64,000 nucleotides of DNA, taken from positions 32,001-96,000 of the IMG/VR virus record IMGVR_UViG_3300006169_000009, one strand, 5' to 3'. Position numbers and translations under genes: made by a program. The notes under the pieces are model-generated. The model did no database searches and was not told the DNA's origin. It saw only the letters and a program-made list of their open reading frames with translations. Below are positions 2,971-63,395 of the stretch, piece by piece. This DNA comes from a virus. Its lineage: Duplodnaviria > Caudoviricetes. Positions within the stretch are counted from its first letter, which is position 1; every line of letters starts with the position of its first letter.

Positions 2971-3519
2971 TTAGCCGTTGAACCCCACGGAGTCGTTCGG
3001 GCCGATGTTGTTGGCCAGCCGGTTGGCGAAGCCCTCGTGGGCCAGCGTCATCTGCTGGATGATGATCGCGTTCGCGCCCGCGTCCAGGTCGGAGAAGGCC
3101 ACGGAGGTCGGCCAGGCGTTGTACACGCGGAAGGCCGCCTTGACCGGCACCCGACCCTGGGTCACAGGGTGTGCGAGCACCTTGATGGTCATCTGCGAGC
3201 GGAAGTTCTCTCCCGCACGCCCCGTGCCGTCTCCCTGGACCACGGCGAACAACTGACGCATCCACCGCATCATGGCGTGGTCTCCGACGGCCAGGCCCTT
3301 GGTCAGGGTCACAGGCGCGAAGTCGGACTGACCCGGCATCTTCTGGGTGGTCGTGTTCATGCCACCCTCGCGGTAGGGGATGACCTCGGTCGTGATGTTG
3401 AGGCCGGACACAGACATGAAGCCCATGTTCGCGAACCCGATGCCCGGCTTGTGGACGTTCACCAGGAACTTGAAGTTCCGCAGCGGGTCCGTCTTCAGGT
3501 GGGCAATGGAGGTAGGCAT
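2971..3519 (-). CDS. Tail tube protein (T4 gp19-like)
   Basis: DPLRNFKFLV, FMSVSGL, IPYREGG, MPGQ, VTLTKG, NAWP, LAHEG motifs. True start is ATG 3519, coupled to the sheath stop; the track start at 3684 is over-extended. Confidence 0.92.
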   Translation of the reverse strand: MPTSIAHLKTDPLRNFKFLVNVHKPGIGFANMGFMSVSGLNITTEVIPYREGGMNTTTQKMPGQSDFAPVTLTKGLAVGDHAMMRWMRQLFAVVQGDGTGRAGENFRSQMTIKVLAHPVTQGRVPVKAAFRVYNAWPTSVAFSDLDAGANAIIIQQMTLAHEGFANRLANNIGPNDSVGFNG

Positions 3520-8181: not shown

Positions 8182-9186
8182 TCAGTTGGTCTCCGCGATG
8201 ACCACGGCCTCGGAGGTGATCAGCCCCAGGCCCCAGATGGCGTACCAGGCCAGGGCGTGCTCACGACCGAAGTCGAGGATTCCGCCGTCACGCAGTTCGA
8301 CCGGCAGGGAGATCGCGTGCCCGAAGGCGTTGTCCCCCAAGAAGATCGACTGGTAGACGTCGGTCTCGGTGCCGGACCCGCCACCGCCGTTGGCGAGGCG
8401 CTTGACCTGCGTGGTCTCGATGAACACGACGTCGTTGAGGCGACCGATCTCGCCCAACATGAAGTTCCCCGGTGCCGCATACTTGGTGACCTCGATGAAC
8501 TCGGGGTCGTCACGCAGCCGACGGGACTGGTGCGGGTGGACGAAGGCGACGTAGGTCTCGCCCAGCCTCGGGACGTTCTTGGTCGCCAGCGTCTCGACCG
8601 CGTCCTTGACGAGGTGCGAGGTGAAGTTGTGCTTCTTCGTGTTCACCATGGCGGCCCGGTTGGCTGCGGCGGTGCCGGAGTCGTACGGGCTGACGTTGGT
8701 GATCGTGGTCGACGTGGTCTTGTCGTAGCCGTAGATGACGGAAGGAGCCAGGAGGAGAACGTTGCGGGCGCTCTCGTCCAGGTACTGCGCCATGTTACGA
8801 CCGAGGAGACGAGAGGCCGAGGCCATCACGTCATCGAACGAGGCGTTGAGCAGGAGTTCCGACACCGCCACCGCGTAGCCCTGTTCCGCCACCGTGATGG
8901 AGAACTGGGTTGCGGTCAGCGGGTTCGTCTCCATGCGCACACCTTCGACCAACTGCGTTGCAGAGCCGAGGTTGTTGTAGCGCATGAAGTTGATCGTCAA
9001 ACCTGGCTGCACGCCGAGTTCGGTCTTCTTGACGGCGAACTGCTCGAACCGCAGGATCGGCATCGACTGGAAGAGGATCTCCTTCGACCAGATCGTCTGG
9101 ATCGCCGGGCTCAACTGCGAGTTCGTGCCCAAGTACGCGGTCGGAGAAGCCGAGAGGAACGGCGTTCCGGTGATTGCACTGGCCAT
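8182..9186 (-). CDS. Major capsid protein (N4-gp56 family)
   Basis: LRFEQFAVKK, GLTINFMRY, YVAFVHP, GEIGRLNDVVFIET, DFGR..ALAWY..WG; strong codon bias. Confidence 0.93.
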   Translation of the reverse strand: MASAITGTPFLSASPTAYLGTNSQLSPAIQTIWSKEILFQSMPILRFEQFAVKKTELGVQPGLTINFMRYNNLGSATQLVEGVRMETNPLTATQFSITVAEQGYAVAVSELLLNASFDDVMASASRLLGRNMAQYLDESARNVLLLAPSVIYGYDKTTSTTITNVSPYDSGTAAANRAAMVNTKKHNFTSHLVKDAVETLATKNVPRLGETYVAFVHPHQSRRLRDDPEFIEVTKYAAPGNFMLGEIGRLNDVVFIETTQVKRLANGGGGSGTETDVYQSIFLGDNAFGHAISLPVELRDGGILDFGREHALAWYAIWGLGLITSEAVVIAETN

Positions 9187-9265: not shown

Positions 9266-10165
9266 CTAGCCGTACATCCCCTGGTTGCGCTGGGAGCCGG
9301 TCACCCCAAGCCTATCGCGGTACTTCGCGTACTCCGCCATGGACATGTTGTTGATCTGCTCCAGCGTCAACTGCTGGGTGCCGTCGTTGAGGACGTCCAT
9401 CGGTCCCGCCGGTCCTGCGCCACCGGTTCCCACGCCCCTGTTGCGCTGGGCTGCAGCGAAGGCCTTCTGGGCGTCCTCTGCGATCTGCTGGGACTTGGCG
9501 AGCACGACCGACAGCGACTGGTCGACCTCCTCGCGAGTGTTGCCGCCGATGAAGTCGAGCAGTTGCGGGGCGAGGTTGTCCTGGTTCTCGGTGACCTTGG
9601 ACTGGATGTACTGCTGGAGTTCTCCGAACTCGCGCTCGCGCTGGGCCAGAGCCTGGTCGCGCTCACGCTGAGCCTTCAACTCATCGATCTGGGCCTGCCA
9701 GGTCTTCTCGCGCTCCTCCTGCTGCGCGGACCACTCCTGCTCGCGCTGGGCCAGAAGGTCGCGGGCGGACATCTCGTCCTCCTTGCGCTTCTTCTCCGCA
9801 GCCTCGCGCTCCTTGCGCTCGGCGGCTTCGGCCTCTTCGCGCTCGCGCTGCTTGGCCAGCAGTTCATCGACCTGCGTCTTGAAGGCGTTCTGCTGCTTCT
9901 CCGCCTCCTCGCGGGCCTCGCGGTCCTTCTGCTGCTGGGCGTACAACTTGTCCTTCTCCTCCTTGCGGACACGCTCCAGCCGCTCGTTGACCTGCTCCGG
10001 GCTCAGGTAGCCCTCGGGCACAGGAGGAGCCTCGACGGCAGGCTCGGAGCCTCCGGCGATGCGGAAGATGGGACGGCCATCACGACGGTGGCCAAGGATC
10101 TCGTCGGCCAGGTGGCCGAGGGGTGTACGGGTACTACGTGCCACGACTATTCTCCGATCAGTCAT
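9266..10165 (-). CDS. Scaffolding protein
   Basis: Highly charged coiled coil between portal and capsid; C-terminal NMSMAEYAKYR. Confidence 0.8.
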   Translation of the reverse strand: MTDRRIVVARSTRTPLGHLADEILGHRRDGRPIFRIAGGSEPAVEAPPVPEGYLSPEQVNERLERVRKEEKDKLYAQQQKDREAREEAEKQQNAFKTQVDELLAKQREREEAEAAERKEREAAEKKRKEDEMSARDLLAQREQEWSAQQEEREKTWQAQIDELKAQRERDQALAQREREFGELQQYIQSKVTENQDNLAPQLLDFIGGNTREEVDQSLSVVLAKSQQIAEDAQKAFAAAQRNRGVGTGGAGPAGPMDVLNDGTQQLTLEQINNMSMAEYAKYRDRLGVTGSQRNQGMYG

Positions 10166-11879
10166 TCTGCGGGCTTCGGCGCTGCGGCAACTTGGTGCCG
10201 TAGGCCTGTGTCACGATGTCCGACATGAGTTGCCCCATCTCGGCTGACTGCTGACCTCCCATTGCCGGAACCGGCGGTCCTGGCGGTGTAGCCGGAGGGC
10301 CAGAGTCTGGGCTAGATCCCGAAGACGATCCGCTGTCTCCTCCTGCGGAGGTGACCTGCTGCGGTCCTTCTGCCGGAGCCAAGCCCGTAGCAGCGAGAAT
10401 AACAGCCGAGATCTGAGACTTCAGCATGTCCAGAGCGCCCTGCTCCTTGGCATCGGTAACCAGTTCCTCGAAGATCTCCTGCATCTTCTCGTCGGGGAAC
10501 TCCTCGCCCAACTCCTTCAGAGCACCACGCTTGGACTCCAGGCCCAACTGCATCTTCATGGTGATCTCGTTCAACTTGATCAGCGCGTCTACCGGCAGCG
10601 GAGGTGGCCAGTGGATGACGGTCTCATACGTCAGGGGGTCGGATGGGTCCAGCACAGTCGGCTGGCCCTCCTCGATCTTGCCCTGGGTGAACGGGTCGTA
10701 GATCAACTTGTCCTTCTCGAACAGGAACAGCGTTCGCAGGCAGAGTTCGTTGATCTTCTCCAGACCCAGCGAGTAGGTCATCTTCTTGGTGTTGTAGCGC
10801 TGCATCATCGGCTGGTACTGGATCGCCAGTGCCACACCGGAGGTGTTGGAGATCGGCTGCACCTGACCCAGCGCAGTCTCTGGCACGCCGGTCATCTCGT
10901 GCATGCCGCGCTTCAGGATCTCCAGGTACTCGTTGGCAGGGCCGACCGCCTCGGAGCCGCCCTCCAGGTTGTAGACGCGGGCCTCCTTGGGAGGGATCGA
11001 CCAGACCTTCTTCGGCCCCTTCTCCAGGTTGGAGGCCTTGGCTCCGGTGATGATCGTGACCGGCGCAGCGTGGTAGTTGATAATGTCGCTGATCTCCAGG
11101 GCCTTCTCGTTGTACTCCCGGTTCAGCCCGATGATGTCCTGGATGTCTCCCAAGCCCCACGGAGACGAGGAGATCCGCACATTGGGGATGTGGACGACAG
11201 GGATGTGGCCCAGCGGGTTCGGACGCTGGTCCATGATCTCGTCGTTGACGTACTCCTCGATGGTCTCGTCGGTCAGGATCTCGGTGTAGGTGAAGACCTG
11301 CCGAGTCCCTTCCTGGGAGGTACCCCAGAAGCGGTACTTCAACTTGAAGCGCAGCAGCCGCTCACGGTCGTGCGGGTGCCACTCAGGGAAGCAGAAGGCG
11401 GCGTTGAGCGGGAGGATGCGAACGCGGCCAGGGTGGAAGTTGCCAGCCGGGTCTTGGTAGGCAGGGTCGTAGGCGATCTTGACGAACACGTCCCCGGAGA
11501 CTCCGCCCTGCTGGCCCATCTCCCACAACACCGACTCCTTCTCGTTGTCGGTCTCCCAGATCCGCTTCAGCAGGGCTGGGATGATGTGCTCGGTCAGGTG
11601 CGGGCTCTTGAAGTGAACGCCTCGGGAGAACGTGAAGTTGTTGATGAAGTCAGCCAAGGCGCGCACGTAGTTGAACGTGATCTGCGGCTCGCCCGCTTCG
11701 CGACGATATGCCCAGTGATGTCCAAGATAGAAAGCCCAGTTCTGCGCATATCTATTCAATCTAGGACCGTGGACCTCGAACTCTTCGTCGGCCAGTTCCA
11801 CGAGACCAAGCGGCGAGATCGAGACTGTGAGGTCTTGACCCGCCGCACGCATGCTGGGACTCTGGAAGTTGATCGCCAT
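10158..11879 (-). CDS. Portal protein (SPP1 gp6-like)
   Basis: FYLGHH, NPLGHIPVVHIPN, WGLGDI, GVPETALG, SNTSGVAL. Confidence 0.93.
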   Translation of the reverse strand: MAINFQSPSMRAAGQDLTVSISPLGLVELADEEFEVHGPRLNRYAQNWAFYLGHHWAYRREAGEPQITFNYVRALADFINNFTFSRGVHFKSPHLTEHIIPALLKRIWETDNEKESVLWEMGQQGGVSGDVFVKIAYDPAYQDPAGNFHPGRVRILPLNAAFCFPEWHPHDRERLLRFKLKYRFWGTSQEGTRQVFTYTEILTDETIEEYVNDEIMDQRPNPLGHIPVVHIPNVRISSSPWGLGDIQDIIGLNREYNEKALEISDIINYHAAPVTIITGAKASNLEKGPKKVWSIPPKEARVYNLEGGSEAVGPANEYLEILKRGMHEMTGVPETALGQVQPISNTSGVALAIQYQPMMQRYNTKKMTYSLGLEKINELCLRTLFLFEKDKLIYDPFTQGKIEEGQPTVLDPSDPLTYETVIHWPPPLPVDALIKLNEITMKMQLGLESKRGALKELGEEFPDEKMQEIFEELVTDAKEQGALDMLKSQISAVILAATGLAPAEGPQQVTSAGGDSGSSSGSSPDSGPPATPPGPPVPAMGGQQSAEMGQLMSDIVTQAYGTKLPQRRSPQND

Positions 11880-11888
11880 AGGCTAACC

Positions 11889-12650
11889 CTACCGTCTTAC
11901 CGGCTTCAGCAGATTCTGCAACTCTCCGACACTTCGCTGACGAGGGATGTCTCCGAATAGACGATGTGCGTGGTATGCCTCTACGTCGGTGGGGTCCTCA
12001 GTCTCCTCAACATGCTGACCGACCGTACGGCCAGAGAATAGATCCATCTGGTTCTTGTGTACTTCCGGCTGGGTTACTTCCTTCTTCCCGAAGGCGGCGT
12101 CCCAACTCTGGTTGAGGTACTTCTCGTGCTCAGGAGTCCCGTACCGAGGTTCTACTGGGTCGTCGTTCCGAGGATGGTTGACGTCCTCTGCACCCGCACT
12201 GACGTGCTTGAACTGATTCCAGTTGACCGGAGGAAGCGTCCCCTGGCGACCCGGCATGACATCGATCCGTCCGGTCGCCTTGAACGCCGGAGCGACCCAC
12301 TCCCGTAGATCGTCGTGATGTTCAGGGTTATGAGACGGAGACGCTGGGTGATAGTGACCTGGCTTCATCGCAGGGTTGGGGTCTACCTGGAGCACATGAG
12401 CACGACCCGGAGGCTTATCCGCGTAGCCTGCCTTCACCGCGCTGTCCTTCATCACGTGGGCCTGCTTGGCGAACTTCCAGGCGATGTTCTCACTCTCCGA
12501 AGCGTGGGCGACCTTCATGGCGTTCTGACCTTCGGAGGGACCCCTGCCCCAGACACTATTGCCGGTCTTCTCCGCAGGCAAGACCCTGCCGCCCTCGGCC
12601 ATGATGTCGTGTGTGGTCCCGTGAAAGAAGGAGCCCCTACGTCCTTCCAT
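11889..12650 (-). CDS. ADP-ribosyltransferase (Arr-like H-x-T class)
   Basis: FFHGT...AHASES..AWKFA...HVLQVDP...EW; paralog of 61482..62144. Confidence 0.6.
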   Translation of the reverse strand: MEGRRGSFFHGTTHDIMAEGGRVLPAEKTGNSVWGRGPSEGQNAMKVAHASESENIAWKFAKQAHVMKDSAVKAGYADKPPGRAHVLQVDPNPAMKPGHYHPASPSHNPEHHDDLREWVAPAFKATGRIDVMPGRQGTLPPVNWNQFKHVSAGAEDVNHPRNDDPVEPRYGTPEHEKYLNQSWDAAFGKKEVTQPEVHKNQMDLFSGRTVGQHVEETEDPTDVEAYHAHRLFGDIPRQRSVGELQNLLKPVRR

Positions 12651-13254: not shown

Positions 13255-13671
13255 TCAGTCCTCGACTTCTGCCGGGTTCCGACGCTCGTAGCGCGCACCG
13301 GTCGGGTTCGGACGGCCTCGGTTGACCTGCTCGTACTTCAGCGCGGCGAAGTCGTTGTTGGAGCCGTGACCGAACTCACCGAGATAGGTTGGAGCCTCGA
13401 CCCAGGCGGCGGAGCCGACGTGGGCGCGCTCGCGCATGGTCTCCTCGGGGTACTTCTCGTACACGTTGCGGTTGTGGTTGGGACGGCCCGGCGCAGGCAC
13501 GTAGCCCTGCATGACGCCCTTGGTGAACTCGTCGGGGACGTCGGTGTCGGTCGCGATCCCCTCTTCGAAGCGCAGCGGGCCACGCCGGGAGTTGTTCTGC
13601 CCGAACTTCTCCTCGTAGACGTTCCCGACCTGCTCAGGGAACTGAGGGTTCGGGGCGAGGTTGTCAGCCAT
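13255..13671 (-). CDS. Conserved head-module protein (MADNLAPNPQF...)
   Basis: RRGPLRFEEGIATDTDVP and ERAHVGSAAWVEAP; RBS GGAAGG before ATG 13671. The track start at 14049 overlaps the previous gene. Confidence 0.7.
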   Translation of the reverse strand: MADNLAPNPQFPEQVGNVYEEKFGQNNSRRGPLRFEEGIATDTDVPDEFTKGVMQGYVPAPGRPNHNRNVYEKYPEETMRERAHVGSAAWVEAPTYLGEFGHGSNNDFAALKYEQVNRGRPNPTGARYERRNPAEVED

Positions 13672-16700: not shown

Positions 16701-17444
16701 GCTCCACCACGTGCCGGTGTGGGTGTCCCGTAGGTTGACCGGGCCGCCTTCTGCGGTCCCCGGCTTGATCTCTACGGCCCAGGTCAACTTTCGCGAGGAC
16801 TGCGTACAGTTGGCGTTGACTACCTGCTGACCGTCAAGGCGGTACTGGGTGAAGAACTGCGAGGACGGCGTTCCGGTAGAGATGATCGCGCCAGGCATGG
16901 TGTAGCCAGAGCCCGCGCTAGGCGTGACCGAGGTCGTGTTGACCGAATGGAACCCCGCCGTGGCGTTGCCGGATCCGATGGCGTTGGTCAGCGTGACACC
17001 GAACGGGTCAACGGTCTGGTCACTGCTTTCAGCCTGGACGACAGCGCCAGAGCCGTTGGTCCCGCTAGTGTCGGCGTTCTCCCACTGCATTACCGACCAA
17101 CCACAGATCATCTGCACCGCAGAGTGCGTGAAGGTCAGCGCCCCGGCAGTCGGAGAGGCTCCCATGGCTCGGAACAGTGTTAGGCAGATGTTGCCGTTGG
17201 CCGACATCTGAGAGCCGATCTTCTCCCAGGTCAGCCCGCAGCCGGTCATGGTGTCCGTAGGTGCTGCTGTACCGGAGGTACCTCCGGTCTCCACACCGAC
17301 CAGAATCAGCGCGTTGGCCGCTGGCGTGATGCTCGCAGTGCTGTGGGAGGCCTGGTCCGCCGTAGACCAGTCCTGCGTCAGTAGTGTGGGGACGAGTGTT
17401 AGCGGCCCAGACGGCGGAGCCTTCAGCAGGGTGAGTAGCGACAT
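13725..17444 (-). CDS. Large fibre / receptor-binding protein with glycerophosphodiester phosphodiesterase domain, lectin-like domain and 15-aa Trp repeats
   Basis: GDPD motifs NHRSG..PDET, LEMDVHLSADG..CHH, IEPK, WTIND, GADGIITD; C-terminal tandem units such as QSNQALWNVSALVG. Confidence 0.75.
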   Translation of the reverse strand: MSLLTLLKAPPSGPLTLVPTLLTQDWSTADQASHSTASITPAANALILVGVETGGTSGTAAPTDTMTGCGLTWEKIGSQMSANGNICLTLFRAMGASPTAGALTFTHSAVQMICGWSVMQWENADTSGTNGSGAVVQAESSDQTVDPFGVTLTNAIGSGNATAGFHSVNTTSVTPSAGSGYTMPGAIISTGTPSSQFFTQYRLDGQQVVNANCTQSSRKLTWAVEIKPGTAEGGPVNLRDTHTGTWWSNHRSGALLYPDETLEAMAACMADGTTNCLEMDVHLSADGTLYCHHNATTGTLMTSNLTIATSTDAALDALQYKPAALLNPGYQGVYRMAKLEEVLTLYADQVLLSIEPKSQAAGDALPDLLDQYVQIKDNVIIPAFTKSYQDACRTAGYPLANRDPQGTNPSVPIADGAVQENVQFGTVDQSYVDSMHAAGIEVWMWTINDKTSADAAREMGADGIITDDAPYVSGKARLTADPYADQEWFHGYYSGGQINGGSTVGEFTAPDGWGIDNEIGVASVESAILQGWMSPIGGSAFHDTWTLDFEAKMVESFSAVANFTVAFADEDTVGFAGGADGNPTWQGYSCVFRRNGNLQVRAMAGDGTDPVVDAWATVGTLTLDTWYTFRITVTGSSIRLDNLTLGTNVTSTHTAQGRGGYVWFGAAGTRTQFRNVVVTAAEIPESVGKTSQAKWNVQSLVNADVQEVWDVYAAVNQSNQALWNLNSLVTQSNQALWNISTVVNQSSQYVWDTLVSVGQSNQKLWNVSALVGQSSQALWEVYAAASQVVQALWNVSVPVNSDHQAIWHDYAVAGLSNQAIWNALAMQNADSALVWNDQALAAADSAAIWNALGLISRDFAGSWDALNAVNNPLATPWDVRAAINQTSDLRWDAYATVGNGLSALWDVVLRLGNDVGLEWNVQNIASVAAGVDLFWNVLEAVDQDVSLVWNLLAQTLSDLAAQWGVLDIISQDYESLWNVSALASQAVELLWAAQEVAQSQSVIEWNIEANISADSILLWDSRTALAAALITSWEIQEKVGKSLDQVWSSNELAGTEVEAAWQALQRQASDAELLWNTEGLELVGLSLEALWNTIGWAAKETDLSWDVRERLLRDLAAGWESQQRAENDLYLSWHTLQAVALVLNAAWNTRQVQNREIEFGWDAVRLVLADADLMWHIEQELARNLDVRWNVNTLTVGEILAVFMDGVRHAARPFVVINGKRRKVVQLRVLKDGVWHPVT

Positions 17445-19588: not shown

Positions 19589-21166
19589 CTACCGTCCGTA
19601 GAACGGAGAGGCGGAGACCTCCACAGCAGGCGTCTGGAACTCCTGTGCGATGATGCAGGCCATCGCCAGGCTGTCGGGGTAGTCATCATGCGCGTCAGTG
19701 GCTCGTGGGGCCTGAGCGAGGAAGTACGGGCCTTGGAAGTTGGTCTCCAGGTCGCTCATCTGGGTGATGAAGCGCTTGTAGGTCTTCAGCCGCCGGGTCT
19801 TGGCGTGCGCAGGCCACCCGATCTTGGTCCGGTTGATCAGTTCGGTGAGGTGCTTCCAGCGCAGCGACTGATCGGGCAGGCCACTGCCACAGGGGACGAT
19901 CTCCACGTGGGGCATGAGCGTGCGCAGCCGGTCGATGACCACATCTCCCAGGCCTCCCTCGTCCACCGCGATGGCGAACACCCAGTAGTTGGCCAGGAAC
20001 TCCACGATCCGGTGGTACTGGTTCTCCCAGTCTTGACCCGACAGGTCCAGCCAGTTTAGGATGCGGTGATGGTAGTACCCGAACTCGTCAGGGTGGTCCC
20101 AGTCGACCCACACCACGGTCACGATGGTGGAGTCGGTCTTGCGGGCCGGGTCGATGCCGACCACGACCGGCGAGAGGTTGAACGAGTGCAGGATCTCCAT
20201 CGACACATCGCCCAGTTCTTCCAGGCGCTCGGACGTGGTGAACATCCCCTTGTCCAGCAGCCAGTGCAGCCGGTACGACATGCGGAACTCGTCCGAGTCC
20301 TCTCCAAGGCGCAGCATCTCCTTGCGTACGAACTTCAGGTAGTTCTTGTTCCACTTCGCGACTTCCTTCCAGTCGGCCTCGAAGTGGGCCTCCCGGTGTC
20401 CGCGCTTGGTCGCCTGCCGCTTGTTGAACTTGATGGTCTTGTGGAAGACCCCCTTGGTGTAGCCGGGCGTCCCGATGAAGACCATGGTCGCGTTGGTGGA
20501 GGCACCCATGGGGCCGATGGACTTGTTGACCACTGTCTCATCAGCGTCCTGACACTCATCGATGAGCATGAGGTGGTAGGTACGCCCTTCGATCTTGGCT
20601 CGTGGGTGGCATGTCTGACGGCGGACCAGGCTGTGACTGTTGACCAGCACGATGGTCTGCTTTCCACGTCCCTTGGCCGCTCGGTCATCGATGTCTGGGT
20701 CCGCGAGCAGTTCCTGAGCCCGCTCAGAGGTAAGACGCTCCACGATTCGCCCGAAGATGATGTCGGTCTGGTCGTCGGTCGGGGCGAAGCAGCCGACCCA
20801 CATGCCCTCCTTGAACTTGTCCAGCAGGTTCGGGAAGACCTTGGCCAGCACCGGGAGCATGATCATGCAGGCCGCCACTACGTTCGCCACCGTTTCGGAC
20901 TTGCCGGACTGGCGACTGAACAGGGCGGTCAAGGTGGCCCCATCACCGAGGATAAGCGACTCAATCAGCGCTCGGGCGAATGGGCGCTGGTAGGGGTACA
21001 GCGGGTGCCCCGACAGTTCGTCGGTCACGTCGAGTAGGCGGTCGCAGATGAGGTCTACGGTCTCCTTGGAGATGTCATCGTAGAGATGCTCCTCGACTTC
21101 ACGCGCATGGCGTTCCTCGTCGGTCTCGTCGGTGTATTCCTCACCAACTTCGAGCACGTCGGACAT
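19589..21166 (-). CDS. Terminase large subunit
   Basis: LYPYQ; Walker A SRQSGKS; Walker B MLIDECQ; GTP coupling motif; nuclease motifs GIDPA and HDDYPDSLA. Confidence 0.95.
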   Translation of the reverse strand: MSDVLEVGEEYTDETDEERHAREVEEHLYDDISKETVDLICDRLLDVTDELSGHPLYPYQRPFARALIESLILGDGATLTALFSRQSGKSETVANVVAACMIMLPVLAKVFPNLLDKFKEGMWVGCFAPTDDQTDIIFGRIVERLTSERAQELLADPDIDDRAAKGRGKQTIVLVNSHSLVRRQTCHPRAKIEGRTYHLMLIDECQDADETVVNKSIGPMGASTNATMVFIGTPGYTKGVFHKTIKFNKRQATKRGHREAHFEADWKEVAKWNKNYLKFVRKEMLRLGEDSDEFRMSYRLHWLLDKGMFTTSERLEELGDVSMEILHSFNLSPVVVGIDPARKTDSTIVTVVWVDWDHPDEFGYYHHRILNWLDLSGQDWENQYHRIVEFLANYWVFAIAVDEGGLGDVVIDRLRTLMPHVEIVPCGSGLPDQSLRWKHLTELINRTKIGWPAHAKTRRLKTYKRFITQMSDLETNFQGPYFLAQAPRATDAHDDYPDSLAMACIIAQEFQTPAVEVSASPFYGR

Positions 21167-53656: not shown

Positions 53657-54085
53657 TTAGCGGAACTGCTGTCCATTCAGCATGGCGGACCCGGAGTCCA
53701 TCTGCTGCTGGAGGCCAGCCATGCCGGGTCGCTGCTTAGGCTCGCGAGGCCGAGACATCCATGCCCACTGGGCCTGGTTGGCAGCGAACGATCCGACCCT
53801 GGTGCGTGACATCTTGTCGATGCCCTGGTAGGCGGACATGCCTCGGTCGGCCCAGCGGCCAGCAGCCTGCTGGACGGCTCCGGGGGCTCGGTGTGCAGGC
53901 GCAGCATCCTGCATCATGTGGCGACCGGCTCCCAGCGCGCTGCGGGCCATGCCGGTGCCCTCGCTGGCTCCCAGCCCGGCTGCTGCCCGGCCTCCCTGGA
54001 ACGATGCGGCTCGACCAGCGGTGCCTGCGACACGGGCGATCATCGGCGCGGCCCGCGCTACTCCAGCGATGATGGCAGGGATCAT
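53657..54085 (-). CDS. Ala/Gly-rich protein ending in LNGQQFR
   Basis: GGAGG RBS before ATG 54085. Confidence 0.65.
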   Translation of the reverse strand: MIPAIIAGVARAAPMIARVAGTAGRAASFQGGRAAAGLGASEGTGMARSALGAGRHMMQDAAPAHRAPGAVQQAAGRWADRGMSAYQGIDKMSRTRVGSFAANQAQWAWMSRPREPKQRPGMAGLQQQMDSGSAMLNGQQFR

Positions 54086-54116
54086 GTCACACCTCCAGCC
54101 TCCATGGTAGCCGGGA

Positions 54117-56343
54117 TCAGACCTCCAGGTGAGGCCGAGGAAGGTCGGCCACCGGCTCACGGATGCAGATGCAGACCTCCCGGACAGCCCGGTACTCGGC
54201 CTTGCCCGACTCCTCGGCGTTGTGCAGACGCACGTTGTCCTCCGCGATCTGCTGGACCGGCTCTCGGTACAGGTCGTACCAGTCCCGCAGCGTGGCGGGC
54301 ACAGAGCGCTCCTCGCCGCCGTCCAGCACCCGGCGCTGGACGACGAAGTTCACGACGGTGGTCTGCTCCATGGCCTCAGCCTACGCTCCTCAGTCCGGGA
54401 TGACTACGGCTCGCCGGTCGGCGGGCGCGTCTGTTGCGATGTACTTGTGCCACGAGGCCAGGTTCGCCTTGCTTGCCTTGATCCTGGCCCGCAGCGCGTT
54501 GCGCTCGGCGCGGGTGTGCCCACCTCGGGCGAGCAGCGACTCCAGCGCGGCGATCTCGTCCAGCCTCTTGGCGATCATGTCGCCCGCGCTGTCCATGCTG
54601 GTCTCCTCACGCCGGAACGGCGAGAGGTAGGCCGGGCCGGGCCGGTCCGCTGTTGGCGAGAACCGGCTCCGGGTATAGGCGCGAGCCATCAGACGCCCCG
54701 CGCCTTGCGACAGCGCTCGCACGCCTTGTGGCTACGCTGCCCGCTGGGGAGGTCCGAGGGGCTGAACCGGGCCATGCGGCGGGCATCGCGCCCACACATG
54801 GTGCGCGGGTAGGCTGCGCCTCGGTTGAGGTCGTGCCAGACGGTGCTGCCTCCGAACGAGCGAGCAACGGTGGGGGTGGTGGTCATCGTCATGGCTCCAG
54901 TATGGAGGATGGAAGGGGTCTCGCGCCAGCCCTTTCGCAGAGATGGCGCGAGACTTTACCTCAGTCCTCGTCCTCCTCCTGGTCGCCCTCGAAGTCGATG
55001 AAGGCGTCCAGGTGCAGGGCGGTGATCACTTCCCTGGCCGAGATCCAGGTCTGGCCACGGAACTCCACGCCCTCGGGCAGGTCGATCCGCTCGTCCAGGA
55101 TGTCCTCGAAGAGGAAGCCCTCGGGGAACGGATGGGCGCTGGCAGCGATCTCCAGCGCCTCCTCGGCCACGCTGAGCATGCTCGGCGGCGGGGGCGGGAA
55201 GAGGTTGGTGGCGAGGTGGGCGCGAAGCCCGGCAGTGCCGAACTCTGCGAGTCCAGCGGCAACGGTGTGTCCCATCAGGAGGCCTCCCGGTCCTGTCGGA
55301 GATCTTCACGGGTCTGCTTGGCCTGACGCTGCGCCAGCGCCTTGGTCTTGTGCTCGGAGTCCTCCATGCCGTCCACCAGGACGACCCAGGCTCCTCCGAT
55401 CTTCTGCACGGACACGCGGTGCGGAGGCACCTCGATGCCGGAACGTAGTCTCACGGTCAGTCCTCCTGTCGGACGGGTTCGGGGGTGGGGAGGCCGACAG
55501 CGGCCACGAGGACCGCCATCAGCACGGCGAAGACGAGCACGGTGATCATCAGACCTCCCTTGCCAGGACGTCAACGTAACGCAGTTGGTCGACCGCGCCG
55601 TTGATGACGTAAGTACGGACGTCCTCACGGATGGCTGCCCTATCCGGGCCGACTCCGTAATTCTCCTCCCACGCCTGGGGGTCGATGTCGACGGTGAACG
55701 AGACCTTGACCTTCATCAGGCCTCACCCCTTCCAGAGGGGACGCGGCGAACGCTCGCTGCCCTGCGCCGGGCCACGAACGCGGCCTGCGCCGCTTCAATG
55801 CGGGCGCGCTTCTGAGCCTGCGTCTCCGGGCCACGGGGGCGGAGCGCCTTGGTCACCTGCTGCTGGATCATGCGGTGGTCCTCTCTGTGGTGTCCCACCC
55901 ATTGTCTCATGGGCAAGGGCTGCGGCGCAACCCCTTTCACAGATTCCTTCGAGCGCGCCTGATGCTGTTGAGCGTGAGCCCGTGCTTGCCTACAGCCTCG
56001 TGCAGACGTCCCTCGACCCAGGAGGTGTCCAGGTCACCAGCCGCCTTGTCGGTGTTGTGCCGCCAGACCTCCAGCAGCGCCTCCGAGACCAAGGCGCTGG
56101 CATCCTTCAGCCTCTCCTCGGCCTGCTCCAGGTCGGCTCGAAGTGCCTGCATCCTGGCTCCCTCCACGCTCATCGGAACGCTCCGGGTCGGATGTCGAGC
56201 GGCAGCCCGTGCTCGGCGGCGACCTGCTCGGCCACCTCGCGGTGCCGGATCGTGTCGACCAAGGCGACCCGGCCAGCGCGCACCAGCAGCAGTTCAGTGA
56301 CCTGACGGTCGCCGTGCCACTGAGCCACGAGACGGGCGGCCAT
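54117..56343 (-). other. Run of small hypothetical CDSs (54117..54371, 54390..about 54689, 54689..54892, 54961..55275, 55716..55872, 55937..56173, 56170..56343)
   Basis: Coupled ORFs behind repeated promoters. Confidence 0.55.
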
Positions 56344-57727: not shown

Positions 57728-57898
57728 CCCGTAACCCTGGCAGTGGAGGCAGTCCGCACCGTCATCGTCCTGCCCGGATCCGTAGCACCGCTTGCAGTCG
57801 ACTTCACGCCGGACGAACTCACCCTTCTCGGGGGCTCCATCGTCCGAACCGTTGTGAACGTCGTTCCAGGCCTCTTCGTGGCTGTACGAGTTACTCAC
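57713..57898 (-). CDS. Small DnaJ-type Zn-finger protein
   Basis: CKRCYGSG...CLHCQGYG. Confidence 0.65.
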   Translation of the reverse strand: MSNSYSHEEAWNDVHNGSDDGAPEKGEFVRREVDCKRCYGSGQDDDGADCLHCQGYGTNLV

Positions 57899-59363
57899 CG
57901 ACTACATGCCCTTCTACGATGTCCTCGGCCATGGGGTCGGCCTCTACTGGTCCCGGCAGGGCCTGGGCTCGCTCGGAGGCTCCGGCACCGAACATGCGCG
58001 AGAGCATGCCGGGCTCACCTCCTCCGCCTGCAGGGCCACTGCCACGCCCTGTGATCGAGATCGACCATCCCTCCTGCTCCATCTCGTGCTTGGCCTTCAT
58101 CATCTTGTTCAGCCGGTCGATCTCGGTGGAGAGGTTCGGGTCGGCGTATCCGCCCTCCAGTTCTTCCGCAAACCGCATGAAGTAGACACGCTGGGTCTGC
58201 ATCTCGATGAGCCCGTTGTGCATGTCGATGAAGTCCTGCTTGGTCCGAAGCGTGACCGGGATGTTGTACGCACAGTTAGCATCTTCCTGGAACTCGGGGC
58301 ACTTCGAGGACAGGAAGCAGGAGTTGCACATGCGCTGGGAGTCGCTGCGGATGTTGACCTTGTTGGTCTCGACAGTCTCTCCGTCGACCTCTTCCTCTGT
58401 CCTGGTGACCCCCAGGATCGGCAGCGTCTTGCTCGGCTCACGGGTATTTCGAGTTGCCAGGCTCTTCCGCGTTTCGTCCGAAGGGTTATCAACTGCCTCC
58501 CCCTCGGATTCCGCGTTCTCCGCTGTCAGCGAAACCTGGGGGTTAGCAACTCGACCCTGTCGCTTTTCGATGTCTTCGACCAACTTGCCCCAACTCCACG
58601 CTGAGAGCCTCAGCACCTCGGTCGGGTCGTCGTTCTCGATCTTGACGTGGTCGAACCCGTTGCGCTCGAACAGCGTGCGGTGCTGCTTACGGGCACGCTC
58701 CTTGTAGTCCTTGGGGTAGCGCTTCAACTCCCGGCCAGTCCAGATGATGGTGTCCCCATATCGCTGCGGAGAAAGCCACGAGGTGCTGCTCACGGAGTTC
58801 CACTTGATGGCCGACATCTCATCGACCTTAGTCATCGCTACGCCGTGCAGATGACAATCGAGCGAATTGAGATGGGGTGCCAGATTACGCCCTCCGATAG
58901 CCGTAGCGAGAACACCGACGTTGAGATACTTCTCGGACAGTTCCCGAAGTGCATCGAGTCCCCACTCGGGATGCCACAGTGGCATGAACTTGTCTCGTGG
59001 CAGGTCATCGTAGAAGTCCTCTCGCTGGTTTTCGATCCACTCCCGGCCCAGGCTGAGGGCATCGAACTCAGTGACCATCTCGACAGTGTCGATGTTGGCG
59101 GCCACAAAGGTCTGGTAGGCGTCCGAGATCGCCAGCAGGTCGGCTTGGCTGTACTTGTCGTCCTCGTCCTTGTTCACGGTGTAGGCACCAGAGTCGATGA
59201 GGATGTTGGTTCCGTCAGGGAACTTCTCAGCGACCTTCCACCCAGCCGTGTTCTTGACACGCCGCTGCAGCCCGATGAACGACAGCGCCACATTGGTGAC
59301 ATCGATCTCGCGCAGCACCTTGCGATGGCTGGGGACCTCAGCCCCGGCGTAGTACAGCCTCAC
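57891..59363 (-). CDS. TGT (queuine tRNA-ribosyltransferase / DpdA)-like barrel fused to a Cys4 and helical domain
   Basis: LYYAG, ILIDSGAYT, EFD, PLWH, HLHG, SVSSTSW..YG; then CNSC....C.......C. Confidence 0.65.
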   Translation of the reverse strand: MRLYYAGAEVPSHRKVLREIDVTNVALSFIGLQRRVKNTAGWKVAEKFPDGTNILIDSGAYTVNKDEDDKYSQADLLAISDAYQTFVAANIDTVEMVTEFDALSLGREWIENQREDFYDDLPRDKFMPLWHPEWGLDALRELSEKYLNVGVLATAIGGRNLAPHLNSLDCHLHGVAMTKVDEMSAIKWNSVSSTSWLSPQRYGDTIIWTGRELKRYPKDYKERARKQHRTLFERNGFDHVKIENDDPTEVLRLSAWSWGKLVEDIEKRQGRVANPQVSLTAENAESEGEAVDNPSDETRKSLATRNTREPSKTLPILGVTRTEEEVDGETVETNKVNIRSDSQRMCNSCFLSSKCPEFQEDANCAYNIPVTLRTKQDFIDMHNGLIEMQTQRVYFMRFAEELEGGYADPNLSTEIDRLNKMMKAKHEMEQEGWSISITGRGSGPAGGGGEPGMLSRMFGAGASERAQALPGPVEADPMAEDIVEGHVVGE

Positions 59364-59851: not shown

Positions 59852-59892
59852 GGCCCTATCCTAGAGCAGGGGCATGAAAGGTGTCTACGCCC

Positions 59893-60399: not shown

Positions 60400-60433
60400 T
60401 CATCAGTACCTCAACCCCACCCGAGGTTGCGGT

Positions 60434-60778
60434 TCACTCGTTTCCCCACCAGTTCACGTCGAAGTGTGTGTCTCCTCGCTGCTTGGCCGCTGCCAGCCGG
60501 TGATGTCCCTCACCGATGTAGACCTTGCCTTCGTGTTCTACCAACTCAGGCCGCTCATCACCGTACATCGGCACACCCCCAGGAGCCTTGTAGCCTCCCG
60601 AAGCGTAGTCGTCCACCCGGTTCTTGAAGATGTTGCCTTGGCCGGTGTGCAGTTCAATGTCAGCAGAGACACTGCGCCGGGTTGGGGTGCCTCGGCGTGC
60701 GGCGTTGGCCTGTGAGTGTGCCTCGCTGGTAGTCAACTTCCAGCCGAACTGCAGCGGGCTCAGCAGGTTGCGGTTCAC
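60434..60778 (-). CDS. ParB/Srx-like domain protein
   Basis: LHTGQ...YIGEGHHRLAAA..RG; GTG start MNRNLLSPLQF. Confidence 0.75.
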   Translation of the reverse strand: MNRNLLSPLQFGWKLTTSEAHSQANAARRGTPTRRSVSADIELHTGQGNIFKNRVDDYASGGYKAPGGVPMYGDERPELVEHEGKVYIGEGHHRLAAAKQRGDTHFDVNWWGNE

Positions 60779-60788
60779 GCCCCTCGCC

Positions 60789-61331
60789 TCATGGCAGTTG
60801 GATGTGGTCACCGATATGGATCGTGTACGGCGGGTGCAAGCCGTTGATGCGGGCCAGGTTCTCCCAGGTCGTGTCGTTGAGCGCCGCGATCTTGCTCAGC
60901 GTGTCCCCCGAGACCACGACATGGGTCTTCGGAGGCGGAGGGAACAGTTCAGGCAGGTACGCCTTGAACGCCCCGTTGTTGAACGTCGACCAGGCGGTGA
61001 AGCCGTTGCCGAAGACCTCCTGGCGGTGCAGGAAGATCTCTCGGGCCGACTTGGCGGCGAAGTCGGGGTCGAGCAATCGGAAGGCGTCTCGGGTCTGACC
61101 GGTTCGGAAGTGCTCACGCAGCGAGCGGATCTGCCAGAAGCCGTAGGAGTAGCCCCACTTGTCGTTGGCCAGCGCCTGGTCGCCCACCATGTCGGCGTCT
61201 GCGAAGGTCTGGCCGTCCACCTCCACGGGGGCCTCGCAGAGCGCGAGCGCGCCCATGATCTTGGCCTGGCGGGGTCCGAAACCGTTGACCCTGGCCAGCC
61301 GCTGTACCTGGAACTGGGTAAAGAGGTTCAT
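60789..61331 (-). CDS. Lysozyme-like transglycosylase with LysM domain
   Basis: ALALCE, SYGFWQI, LLDP..AA, GFTAWSTF; C-terminal HVVVSGDTLSKIA....WENLARIN...IHIGDHIQLP. Confidence 0.85.
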   Translation of the reverse strand: MNLFTQFQVQRLARVNGFGPRQAKIMGALALCEAPVEVDGQTFADADMVGDQALANDKWGYSYGFWQIRSLREHFRTGQTRDAFRLLDPDFAAKSAREIFLHRQEVFGNGFTAWSTFNNGAFKAYLPELFPPPPKTHVVVSGDTLSKIAALNDTTWENLARINGLHPPYTIHIGDHIQLP

Positions 61332-61357
61332 GTGCCCAGTGTAGTGGCCCTGACACC

Positions 61358-61390
61358 AAGAAGCCCCAGCCCCGGGAACTGGAGGCTGGG
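61358..61390 (-). terminator. Intrinsic terminator-like hairpin
   Basis: CCCAGCCTC-CAGTTCCC-GGGGCTGGG followed by GCTTCTT. Confidence 0.5.
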
Positions 61391-61481
61391 ACTGCTCGGA
61401 GATGGCGGATCACCCCCTCAGGTCAGGCTCGGAGCGGATATCTCGAATCCCCATCTTCACCTCCCCTGCGGGCGTGTGTCT

Positions 61482-62144
61482 CTAGGTTATCCTCCCGAAG
61501 CGGTTCTTCATGTGCTCCATGCCAGGCAGCATCGGGTCCTTGGTGCGCAAGGCTGCCAGCGGAGCACCTACCGCGTCTCCGCGCTCCATGGATCTAGCGA
61601 GATCCTCCTTGGCGGCCTGCCTGCGCATCTGCCCGTTCCAGTGGTCACCCTCGTGTGAGTACTTGTGCCCGAACTGCACGCTCAGGTTGGTCGGGTGGTT
61701 GGCGTCCTCGTTCTCCCGGAACAACCCTGTGTGCTGGACGTGGTTGTTCCAGTTGACCTCGGGGAAGGTCCCCTGCCTTCCCGGCATGATGTCGTGGCGC
61801 TGGGCTACGTCGAAGTGAGGGGCCTTGACCTCGCCGGGGATGGACTTGTCGTGTCCCGGTGACTGCGCCTCGTTCTGGTGTACGGCGTACACACGGGCTC
61901 GCGGGTTCCAGTCGTGCTCGTTGGAGGTGTGAACCACTCTGTCGTGTGCGAAGTTCCATGCCCGCTCCTCGTCAGGCACTGCCCAGGCGTGCTTGTTCGC
62001 GGCCTCCCCACGACTCTGACCAGTGCTTCCCCAGTACGATCCCTTGCCGTGCTCCGAGGCAGGCAGCACCTTTCCTCCCTCCACATCCATGGCGGTGCCG
62101 TGGTAGAGGAACTGCTGGGAGTTCAGGTGGTCACTAGCGCTCAT
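61482..62144 (-). CDS. ADP-ribosyltransferase (Arr-like), paralog of 11889..12650
   Basis: LYHGT, AWAV...AWNFA, RVYAV, GEV; shared D(I/V)MPGRQGT.P.VNWN and ED.NHP. Confidence 0.6.
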   Translation of the reverse strand: MSASDHLNSQQFLYHGTAMDVEGGKVLPASEHGKGSYWGSTGQSRGEAANKHAWAVPDEERAWNFAHDRVVHTSNEHDWNPRARVYAVHQNEAQSPGHDKSIPGEVKAPHFDVAQRHDIMPGRQGTFPEVNWNNHVQHTGLFRENEDANHPTNLSVQFGHKYSHEGDHWNGQMRRQAAKEDLARSMERGDAVGAPLAALRTKDPMLPGMEHMKNRFGRIT

Positions 62145-62562
62145 GTCCCCAGCCTCCTTCCACCACGTTGGCCTGGAACTGACGGCCCTGCAGCATCGCC
62201 GCAGCAGCGCGATGATGGCCGCTTAGAAGCAGGTTTGTTCCATCATCCCTACGGTAAACCACAGGATGTTCGTTACCTGCGAGATGTTGGTCGGCATAGA
62301 CCTTGCCCGGGTTCTCCATGTAGTGCTTGACCCCGGCTCGGGTGATCTGGCCCTGGGTGGCCTTCAGGTCCCGAGGATCCACGTCCTGCATGGATGGGCT
62401 CTTGATCGCGTCCAGCACCTTCTGCTTCTCGTAGTCGTGGCGCTTGGTGCTGCGCGTGGCCTGTCCCCAGGGGGTGCTCGTGGTTGGTGCCTCGTCCGGG
62501 AAGAGGATGTTGAGGTCGTGCTTCCCGTGCAGGTACTTGAACTGCGGGCCGAACCTATCCAT
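62134..62562 (-). CDS. ParB/Srx-like domain protein
   Basis: DLKATQ...GVKHY...PVVY...LLSGHHRAAAAMLQG. Confidence 0.75.
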   Translation of the reverse strand: MDRFGPQFKYLHGKHDLNILFPDEAPTTSTPWGQATRSTKRHDYEKQKVLDAIKSPSMQDVDPRDLKATQGQITRAGVKHYMENPGKVYADQHLAGNEHPVVYRRDDGTNLLLSGHHRAAAAMLQGRQFQANVVEGGWGHER

Positions 62563-62861
62563 CAGTCCTCCCGCAGATCGAACACAGGCTGCTGACCCTC
62601 GTGGACGGCGACGATGTTCTCTGGGGGAACGTGACCCATAACAAAGATCCCCTTGCCGGGGTGATTTCCGTGGACCTGATGCTGGATGTGCTCCTGGCCG
62701 ACCTTCATCTCCAGCACGTGTGAACCGAAGCCCTCGGCGTCTTGGAAGCGCGAAGATGTCATCCCTCGGGTGAGACCCTTCTCCTGGATCCCCGCGAGGT
62801 TTCGCTTCTGGGTGCCGTGGTACAGCGTGAACTGCGGTCCCAGGTGCTCAGTAGCGCTCAC
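62562..62861 (-). CDS. Minimal ART / Tpt1-like NAD-dependent protein
   Basis: LYHGT....GIQEKGL..MTS....A..FG..VLE...GHVPPENI. Confidence 0.65.
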   Translation of the reverse strand: MSATEHLGPQFTLYHGTQKRNLAGIQEKGLTRGMTSSRFQDAEGFGSHVLEMKVGQEHIQHQVHGNHPGKGIFVMGHVPPENIVAVHEGQQPVFDLRED

Positions 62862-63247
62862 GTCATCCTCCTGATCTCCTTATGCGCCCGCAGGGTGGCG
62901 TCAGCATTCTCCTGGTACCGAACCGGAACCGGATCGATACCCAGTTCATGAGCCACAATGGCACGGTGATGGCCGTCTTCAATGTAGAAGTGCGATCCTC
63001 TCTTACTCAGAAGCACTGACCCAGGAAACCCTTCAGACTTGACCTTGTTCTTCAAGTTGTCCAAGTACTGCGAGGCTCCTCCCGCATCACGATGTCGCTG
63101 ATCGAACCCCGCTTCTCCCGACACCAATGACTTACGCAACCTTGGAACGCTGGCCTCATGCTCTCCACCACTGTGAAGACGCCGAAACTGTTCAAGAGGC
63201 ATGCTCTCGTGCTTCCACTGTGCTCCCAGGTGCTCAGGTGCGCTCAC
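62858..63247 (-). CDS. ParB/Srx-like domain protein
   Basis: LKNKVKSEGF..SVLL....IEDGHHRAIVAHELGIDPVPV. Confidence 0.8.
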   Translation of the reverse strand: MSAPEHLGAQWKHESMPLEQFRRLHSGGEHEASVPRLRKSLVSGEAGFDQRHRDAGGASQYLDNLKNKVKSEGFPGSVLLSKRGSHFYIEDGHHRAIVAHELGIDPVPVRYQENADATLRAHKEIRRMT

Positions 63248-63395
63248 GTCGACTCCTGATCTCCTCTAGCCCCGGTCGATACAAGGGCATCTTTACCTCA
63301 GGATGCGGCTCGGCCTCTTCTTCGTCAAGACGAGCAGCAGTTCCCATCATGTTCGTGCGTACGTCCCAGTGCGGACGACCAATCTCAGTAGCCAT
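63234..63395 (-). CDS. 53-aa hypothetical protein (not in the ORF track)
   Basis: MATEIGRPHW...; overlaps both neighbouring genes. Confidence 0.45.
   Translation of the reverse strand: MATEIGRPHWDVRTNMMGTAARLDEEEAEPHPEVKMPLYRPGLEEIRSRRERT

Follow-up and report, generated by a model that had tools for sequence, protein, structure and literature searches.

Why should neighbouring phage genes that encode unrelated enzymes begin with the same short peptide? This question is raised by a stretch of 64,000 nucleotides (nt), bases 32001-96000 of the 106,055-bp IMG/VR record IMGVR_UViG_3300006169_000009 (G000), which is complete by CheckV. The whole stretch is called the window here, and positions are counted from its first base. 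Its GC content is 63%, its minus strand holds almost all genes, and the genome is that of a Streptomyces-type myophage of 106 kb. Six neighbouring genes on the minus strand, encoding three ParB/Srx-type proteins, two proteins assigned with different firmness to the ADP-ribosyltransferases (ARTs) and a lysozyme, begin with a short peptide that ends in L-x(2-3)-Q-F/W and is referred to as the tag. An earlier note, made from the window's letters, had taken this peptide for a modular tag that loads enzymes into the phage head. We found that the peptide is conserved at the protein level in several genomes and on three or more unrelated named folds, and that it is terminal and predicted to be disordered, as expected of a modular tag. 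Head loading would be the best single reading of it, one that we hold tentatively. The array consists of the following features.

62858..63247, minus strand: ParB1, 129 amino acids (aa), predicted ParB/Srx fold; tag at residues 1-11, MSAPEHLGAQW, nt 63215-63247.
62562..62861, minus strand: ART1, 99 aa, weakly ART-like; tag at residues 1-11, MSATEHLGPQF, nt 62829-62861, then TLYHGT.
62134..62562, minus strand: ParB2, 142 aa, putatively ParB/Srx-like (SGHHR); short tag MDRFGPQF, nt 62539-62562.
61482..62144, minus strand: ART2, 220 aa, predicted ART fold; tag at residues 1-12, MSASDHLNSQQF, nt 62109-62144, with LYHGT directly after it.
61364..61384, minus strand: terminator-like hairpin (a consensus match only) after ART2, at the end of a four-gene operon.
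60789..61331, minus strand: SLT_3 lysozyme with LysM (Pfam LysM 1.3e-13, SLT_3 1.5e-10); N-terminus MNLFTQF.
60434..60778, minus strand: ParB3, 114 aa, putatively ParB/Srx-like (GEGHHR); tag MNRNLLSPLQF, nt 60746-60778.

The full form of the tag is MSAx(D/E)HL(G/S/N)x(x)Q(F/W), with L-(G/S/N)-x(1-2)-Q-(F/W) as its core and a length of 8-12 residues. The five ParB and ART open reading frames (ORFs) and their N-termini, with ParB and ART alternating, are as had been described before; the MNLFTQF of the lysozyme is a sixth, looser match, and the SLT_3 match of this protein begins at residue 11. The start of ParB3 was placed at the GTG at 60778 because a GAGG ribosome site is present there and none is present at the longest-ORF start at 60811. 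ParB1, ART1, ParB2 and ART2 overlap, in this order, by 4, 1 and 11 nt, which indicates that the first four genes are translationally coupled. The array genes encode single-domain proteins of 99-220 aa with stop codons between them, so that none combines the two or more effector domains per polypeptide by which polyvalent proteins are recognized. A sigma-70 scan detected no promoter-like site upstream of the array and one weak site downstream of it (~59860-59887), and a k-mer search of 44 intergenic regions revealed no shared promoter motif by which the array could be assigned to early or late expression.

Is the peptide more than a chance resemblance among neighbours? A motif scan of the genome and its relatives bore out the N-terminal recurrence. 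The loose pattern matched seven N-termini in the 106-kb genome against 0.8 expected, and six of these seven were the adjacent array genes. The core, written as L-[GSN]-x(1,2)-Q-[FW] and sought at the first 11 start positions, gave 10 matches against 0.61 expected in six related records, and the reversed core gave none in the same six. Since the pattern was defined post hoc, P values are indicative only, and the clustering and the recurrence across genomes weigh more. Searching DNA for MSAx(D/E)HL revealed four further true gene starts in related contigs, to which whole-record scans added more. A frame-free DNA pattern, (D/E)HLxxQF, matched on at least 119 contigs; it missed known bearers and served as a loose control only. 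Among the matches listed for it, those in frame were internal and chance-like, the sole exception being one ORF with low GC at third codon positions, which was taken for chance.

Tag-headed proteins were seen in the window's genome (G000), in the related records G001 and G004 (taken together), G002, G003 and G005, and at L007, L199, L219 and L223. In G002, an ART1-like protein of 100 aa bears MSASDHLSPQQF, a protein of 86 aa bears MSASDNLSPVQF, and a protein of 131 aa encoded after the portal bears MSAMSPKQW. G003 has MSADEHLGEQF and MSASDNLGRQW; G001 has MSLRVLGEQF on a ParB, MRNLQRKQF on an ART, and MSALGRQF; G004 has MSALDHLGQQF and MSASEALGQQF as well as MTLSPQQF on an ART; and G005 has MSAVDHLSDLQF. 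At L007 the tags are MSNLSPHQF on an ART and MSAQDHLSPFQF, whereas L199 carries MSHRALGEQF on an ART1-like protein and L219 carries MSHRALGPQF on a ParB. Pfam assigned four unnamed tagged proteins to the GNAT acetyltransferases (E 4e-7 to 3e-4). The bearers are ARTs, three kinds of ParB/Srx protein, GNATs and several unnamed small proteins. One label thus heads at least three unrelated named folds and is portable between them.

What is conserved could be the peptide or the DNA beneath it. We compared the codons of 22 tagged gene starts from the window's genome, G001-G005 and L007. Outside the ParB1/ART1 pair, the 22 nt upstream of the start codons are unrelated among the tagged starts. Within the tag, synonymous differences are seen in the Ala, Ser, Leu, Gly and Asp codons and the x positions vary, whereas L, Q and F/W are fixed. 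CAG and TTC are the sole Q and F codons in the tags, which is expected at such a GC content. The varying codons and x residues around a fixed L, Q and F, together with a Q-F that is invariant in 28 ART2-family proteins, indicate that selection acts on the peptide. The similarity is thus not purely one of DNA repeated without synonymous variation, the alternative that the earlier note had itself raised; the exception is a local duplication involving ParB1 and ART1. The 5' ends of these two genes have ~45 nt in common (63215-63265 and 62829-62879), including the ribosome site GGAGATCAGGAG, and their first nine codons, downstream of this site, are near-identical (88% over 34 nt). This common DNA suggests a recent duplication of the 5' end onto an unrelated gene body. 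In addition, an exact 14-nt direct repeat, GTGAACCGCAACCT on the minus strand, brackets ParB3. One copy (60765-60778) includes the start codon; the other (60424-60437) overlaps the stop codon and would encode just MNRNLGWG. The repeat resembles the trace that inserting or duplicating a cassette would leave.

Both repeats would be expected if the short conserved 5' ends served as a handle for recombination or gene conversion, by which effector cassettes are swapped or duplicated behind an existing ribosome site, and if the peptide itself were nearly functionless. The same explanation would account for the variants that are typical of lineages (LG in G000, G003 and G004; LSP in G002 and L007), for the MSHRALG that L199 and L219 have in common on separate contigs and on different kinds of protein, and for the variable, mobile-cassette-like positions of the tagged genes. 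However, it is at odds with the unrelated upstream DNA outside ParB1/ART1, with the pattern of varying codons and fixed residues, and with the invariance of Q-F over the ART2 family. Moreover, a handle of ~33 nt would be very short, and a matching 3' handle is found at ParB3 only. We therefore regard a DNA handle as improbable.

Does the peptide belong to the folds that it heads? The AlphaFold model of ParB1 has a predicted local distance difference test (pLDDT) score of 80.5; exactly residues 1-11 score below 50, and the fold begins at residue 14. Foldseek matched this model to sulfiredoxin 6ky4 (E 2.1e-4) and then to ParB 7bnk and Spo0J 1vz0, with E values of 2e-4 to 1e-3 and a probability of 1.00, and PHROG returned a ParB-like match (E 1.3e-4). 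As modelled, ParB1 has the ParB N-terminal/Srx alpha-beta fold. ParB2 and ParB3 are putatively ParB/Srx-like as judged by their motifs. The GxxR (GHHR) motif of the nucleotide pocket reads DGHHRA in ParB1, SGHHRA in ParB2 and EGHHRL in ParB3, and the C-terminal core of ParB3 resembles ParB1 and ParB2. GHHR is invariant across the ParB2 family, which comprises 21 proteins including the query (E down to 9e-39). Most members of this family begin with MSR(A/S)E(Q/E)F(Y/W)G rather than with the short tag of ParB2. Stand-alone relatives of ParB1 from a library of 1.8 billion proteins start with MSASEHLSPQQF, MTAADHLSDVQF and MSNLSTQQF.

The AlphaFold model of ART2 is of moderate quality (pLDDT 66.6). 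Its residues 1-6 score below 50, the first block of ten residues averages 47, and strand 1 spans residues 13-17. Foldseek placed the Arr rifampin ART 2hw2 first (E 1.5e-3, probability 1.00), and the remaining matches were mostly cholera, pertussis and Tpt1 entries. ART2 is predicted from this model to have the ART fold of the H-Y-E type superfamily (Arr/Tpt1-like), while an ART2-family profile found nothing among PDB sequences. In the family of 28, in which ART2 is 44-74% identical to its 27 relatives, Q11, F12, H15, G16, T17 and E105 are all invariant; E105 is the putative catalytic Glu, assigned by position only. The residues from L to Q vary in the same family (LNPDQF, LNKDQF, LGPQF, LSKSQF). 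ART1 gave weak matches to Pfam PARP and Tpt1 (E ~0.09) and to a PHROG 2'-phosphotransferase (E 0.003 over residues 6-32), and hhalign aligned it to the ART2 family over 13 columns only. Its relatives read YHVT and YHRT, and PARP is present in 16% of the members of one nearby atlas cluster. ART is thus a provisional label for ART1, which is weakly ART-like. When metagenomes and genomes were scanned with the ART2 profile, distant and untagged relatives only were recovered. Distant ART2-like genes (25-32% identity; loci L273-L275 and L009) were observed on contigs of 200-386 kb from metagenome-assembled genomes (MAGs) of Candidatus Saccharibacteria. These have unrelated N-terminal extensions of ~50 residues before FHGT and no tag.

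A structural coincidence, in which the first beta-strand of each family simply happens to begin with Q-F, would make the tag part of the folds. Q11 and F12 of ART2 do directly precede the strand at 13-17, and where the first strand begins, the QF of ParB1-like proteins aligns with EY, HV or EF of untagged relatives. On the other hand, an identical 11-mer, MSAx(D/E)HL..QF, is present on unrelated folds, and disorder is predicted for residues 1-11 of ParB1. The spacing to the ART core also varies, the distance from F to the catalytic His being 1 residue in G001, 3 in ART2, 4 in ART1 and 7 in G004. The peptide is missing from the distant MAG-encoded relatives and from the fused ones described below, and the N-terminal excess (10 against 0.61) would not arise in this way. 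Coincidence is largely excluded and in our view very improbable. The models and alignments place the tag peptide outside the folds, as a disordered segment at the extreme N-termini of the stand-alone forms.

The same domains also exist in a fused state. The best relatives of ParB1 are domains within proteins of 815-2823 aa, one of them in a protein of 1974 aa (E 5.6e-13), and the ParB2 domain forms the C-terminus of proteins of 1391, 1774 and 1974 aa (E 1e-43 to 3e-63). These giants contain two to four GHHR/GNHR motifs each, and an FHGT motif is present in several. Pfam detected GNAT in two multi-domain relatives, P0051, which is one of the giants, and P0054 of 815 residues. The giants fit the 'polyvalent proteins' of Iyer et al. 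(PMC5512222). In the fused multi-domain relatives the core motif matched once in 17,736 residues. Because it is nearly absent inside fused proteins, the motif is neither an inter-domain linker nor a cleavage site between domains, and this idea was ruled out. As far as the sequences indicate, the label goes with the unfused state. Another conserved N-terminal peptide, R(R)ILTAREQxEMLSPW(K/R), was observed on fused ParB proteins of 500-900 aa (P0064, P0069 and P0075, also P0073 and P0068), of which P0064 and P0073 additionally contain an ART-like FH(T/G)(S/T) motif. The EMLSPW end of this peptide resembles (D/E)HLSPQQF, and the peptide may be an equivalent label on fused forms.

To what, then, would the label be addressed? 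In the mechanism that we propose, the array would supply stand-alone ParB/Srx and ADP-ribosyltransferase effector enzymes, plus a lysozyme. The tag would act as an address label, that is, a short linear motif that docks into a single shared receptor through its L, Q and aromatic residues. This receptor would most likely reside in the assembling head, as the scaffold, the capsid interior or the portal, so that a few copies per enzyme would be enclosed in the head and would enter the next host with the DNA. We infer that the tagged proteins bind a common partner, that the procapsid contains this partner, and that the enzymes reach the host by injection. The window encodes the following genes that bear on this proposal.

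19589-21166: large terminase.
11889..12650, minus strand: ART3, a 253-aa paralog of ART2 (E 1.6e-16, 48% identity), directly upstream of the portal gene; N-terminus MEGRRGSFFHGT.
10158..11879, minus strand: portal protein, SPP1 gp6-like (Pfam 9.6e-26, PHROG 5.9e-40); context, candidate receptor.
9266..10165, minus strand: scaffolding-like charged helical protein, between the portal and capsid genes; context, candidate receptor.
8182..9186, minus strand: major capsid protein (PHROG 2.2e-71; N4-gp56 family by the naming of the source); candidate receptor.
3519-5102: tail sheath.
57891-59363, minus strand: DpdA-like protein of the queuine tRNA-ribosyltransferase type, 490 aa (PHROG 887, E 6.5e-67).

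More than 5000 homologs of the capsid protein are known from metagenomes, and the related contigs in IMG/VR number at least 586. Judged by this protein, the nearest cultured relatives (~76% identity) are the Streptomyces phages BRock, LuckySocke, Alone3 and GiJojo, and in LuckySocke the gene between portal and capsid, in the same position as 9266..10165, is annotated as scaffolding protein. In several relatives tagged genes are situated within the structural modules themselves. The gene order in G001 is portal, tagged ART, scaffold, capsid and tagged ParB; in G002 a tagged gene follows the portal; in G003, which is complete and has terminal repeats, a fibre-like gene and the sheath flank two tagged genes; and at L199 a tagged ART1-like gene lies two genes after the capsid gene. 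In the window, ART3 adjoins the portal. Phage_Mu_F, the head domain through which effectors might otherwise be carried, had no match at E<=1 in G000 or G003, in which the controls matched. The tagged genes within structural modules and the absence of a detected MuF together make head loading the best single reading.

Head loading by a terminal peptide has several precedents. Encapsulin cargo-loading peptides are short disordered termini with few hydrophobic anchors, and they dock unrelated enzymes inside an HK97-fold shell. They differ from the tag in being usually C-terminal, in their consensus and in serving a cellular compartment, whereas the tag is N-terminal and viral. In phage T4 the capsid-targeting sequence is a short N-terminal peptide on diverse internal proteins (PMC3012670; Mullaney and Black 1996, as cited in PMC9024508). 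As in the window, a peptide of ~10 residues at the extreme N-terminus is the sole shared part of diverse small anti-host proteins, one of which is an ADP-ribosyltransferase, and the peptide is portable to foreign cargo; a short N-terminal peptide common to otherwise unrelated small proteins is thus a T4-type feature that is present here. In contrast to the tag, which it does not resemble in sequence, the T4 peptide sends its cargo to the scaffolding core and is removed by a prohead protease, and none was found here. The window system further differs from T4 in its actinobacterial host and its N4-gp56-family capsid, and in that it is known from sequence alone. In phage P1, a reporter that carries the first 30 residues of DarB is taken up into heads (PMC9024508). 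This signal resembles the tag in its placement, being an N-terminal signal on an anti-restriction enzyme that leads to head loading. It is, however, carried by one giant protein, needs other Dar proteins and has no likeness in sequence, whereas the tag is found on many small proteins.

The enzymes themselves also have packaged counterparts. T4 Alt is a packaged ART, and P1 packages DdrB, a member of the ParB superfamily (PMC5512222). MuF carries ARTs into virions in other actinophages, as in the MuF-ART fusions of Microbacterium phages (PMC7302621), and in polyvalent proteins (PMC5512222). The polyvalent proteins have the same repertoire as the array, namely ParB/Srx, ART, GNAT and peptidoglycan hydrolase, and their predicted role is delivery with the DNA (PMC5512222). 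Unlike in the polyvalent and MuF-ART proteins, the domains in the window are separate genes with their own N-terminal peptide each, and no peptidase domain was found in the window proteins. The tag would belong with the N-terminal address peptides on phage effector proteins, and no description of its motif was found in the literature searched.

A bolder form of the proposal is that ~100-kb soil actinophages with N4-gp56-type capsids have swapped the polyvalent or MuF fusion for an N-terminal loading peptide of 11 residues, by which any tagged small enzyme (ART, ParB/Srx, GNAT, nuclease or lysozyme) would be enclosed unprocessed and co-injected. We consider this possible but doubtful. If it is true, the tag would provide a minimal handle, of natural origin, for the delivery of proteins to Streptomyces and its relatives by phage particles. 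Counter-defence by injected phage proteins has been little explored, and such proteins are hard to recognize by sequence unless they are fused to a known head domain. If the tag is a loading signal, the proteins injected by this large and uncultivated group of soil actinophages could be catalogued by a sequence rule, and the polyvalent proteins would then have an unfused, tag-based equivalent. Whatever the receptor, a motif common to ART, ParB/Srx and GNAT would point to a single hub for the action or control of effectors.

Several observations weigh against head loading. The array of the window and that of G004 adjoin DpdA and DNA-metabolism genes, far from the structural genes, and the array region looks early or middle, whereas packaged proteins are usually made late. 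The portal-adjacent ART3 lacks the full tag. The tagged genes in head modules are a minority, since ~37 related head modules are usually portal-scaffold-capsid with nothing inserted, and late operons often acquire accessory genes for unrelated reasons. The tagged effectors are accessory. Neither ART2 nor ParB2 had a tblastn match, and the array had no nucleotide match, in 50,697 phage records, and no sequencing run was on record for the array. No tag was found in the cultured phages checked (LuckySocke and G006), and none in G007. G008 has only a ParB2-type gene, which starts with MSRTAQFWG. The motif is short, and its edges are loosely defined in ParB2 and the SLT protein. Finally, the prohead protease families S77, S78 and Prp had no match at E<=1 in G000 and G003.

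The portal-adjacent gene deserves a closer look, since the earlier note had counted an ART paralog beside the portal in favour of its proposal. The paralog is indeed there, as ART3, but it starts with MEGRRGSFFHGT instead of the full tag. An ART is present in the same position, before the portal, in L004/L005, and in G001 an ART follows the portal and starts with MRNLQRKQFHGT.

The position of the array fits better with an alternative in which the tag docks to a common partner other than the capsid. This partner might be a hub in the host, or a phage chaperone or inhibitor that restrains potentially toxic enzymes in the producer. A conserved, portable and disordered terminal motif fits such docking equally well. 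Moreover, an array beside DpdA, among genes of early or middle type, suits host takeover after entry (cf. T4 ModA and ModB), and the translational coupling of four genes suggests joint action. However, no partner gene visibly co-occurs with the tagged genes, and docking of this kind leaves unexplained why fused relatives are free of the peptide and why tagged genes are present in head and tail modules. We consider it unlikely, although it has the better account of the array's location. The bacterial sliding-clamp motif was considered as well and rejected, because the positions +3/+4 from Q lack the consistent hydrophobicity that the clamp consensus demands.

If the tagged proteins are loaded into the head, is the peptide removed there, as it is in T4? 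In addition to the searches of G000 and G003 described above, G001 was searched for S78 and Prp, again with no match at E<=1, although a divergent protease could escape detection. With no prohead protease family detected, cleavage as in T4 is unlikely. Furthermore, no residue after the tag F is conserved over the 22 tagged starts, as a fixed cleavage site would require.

These results also bear on the possibility that the peptide is a degron, a protease-recognition site or an activating propeptide, which would limit the lifetime of harmful enzymes. The motif LNLQFF is common to the capsid and scaffold proteins of staphylococcal phage 80alpha and to ribosomal protein L27, and Prp cleaves there. 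The tag has a superficial likeness to L-N-L-Q-F-F; it is also terminal and disordered, and it is situated on enzymes that could damage the producer. Against this stand the failure to find Prp or S78 in G000, G001 and G003, or S77 in G000 and G003, and the lack of anything conserved after F. Actinobacteria are not known to have the L27 extension or Prp. In ART2, moreover, the peptide abuts the catalytic strand, so that cutting after F would leave almost no N-terminal margin. Cleavage of the Prp/L27 type was rejected, as no Prp was found, and we assign a low probability to a degron or propeptide of any kind.

Two further strings that the earlier note had connected with the tag did not hold up. 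One is LNGQQF at the C-terminus of the protein encoded at 53657-54160, which ends in LNGQQFR. This protein has no relative in five related genomes, and for this reason, and because the motif is C-terminal, we treat the string as chance. The other is DNLAPNPQF near the start of the head-operon gene at 13255-13671, whose N-terminus reads APNPGFPE in G003. This gene was rejected as tagged cargo, since it belongs to a near-universal family of the head module, found in most of the related head modules, with the N-terminus APxP(Q/G)FPE. It is also present in relatives that have no flagged tagged gene in the head-module stretch examined. Its N-terminal string is probably a family feature that is separate from the tag.

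Tag-like N-termini were also observed on two paralogs of 270 and 304 aa in G003 (65648-66562 and 67526-68338; locus L057), which are encoded just after the large terminase and begin with MTLNGQQFRMQTNMK and ..LTGAQFRMHTNMK. They have no homolog in the window's genome, and Pfam gave no match for the 270-aa paralog, the one of the two that was scanned.

The DpdA-like gene lies just downstream of the array and is also present in the relatives G003 and G004. Its presence suggests 7-deazaguanine modification of the DNA. In bacterial Dpd systems DpdA is partnered by ParB-like proteins, and a link between the small ParB proteins of the array and DpdA is conceivable.

As to the lifestyle of this group, one homolog of the capsid protein was observed on a Terracoccus contig of 1.13 Mb, and G008, a relative of 100.6 kb, is listed as a provirus in IMG/VR. 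Part of this group, lytic as it looks, may thus exist in integrated form or be carried in cells. In the window, a protein of 1239 aa is encoded at 13725-17444 on the minus strand, between the terminase and portal regions. It contains a glycerophosphodiester phosphodiesterase domain (Pfam E 1.3e-16) and a long C-terminal half rich in W(N/D)-x-type repeats, and it may be a teichoic-acid-degrading fibre.

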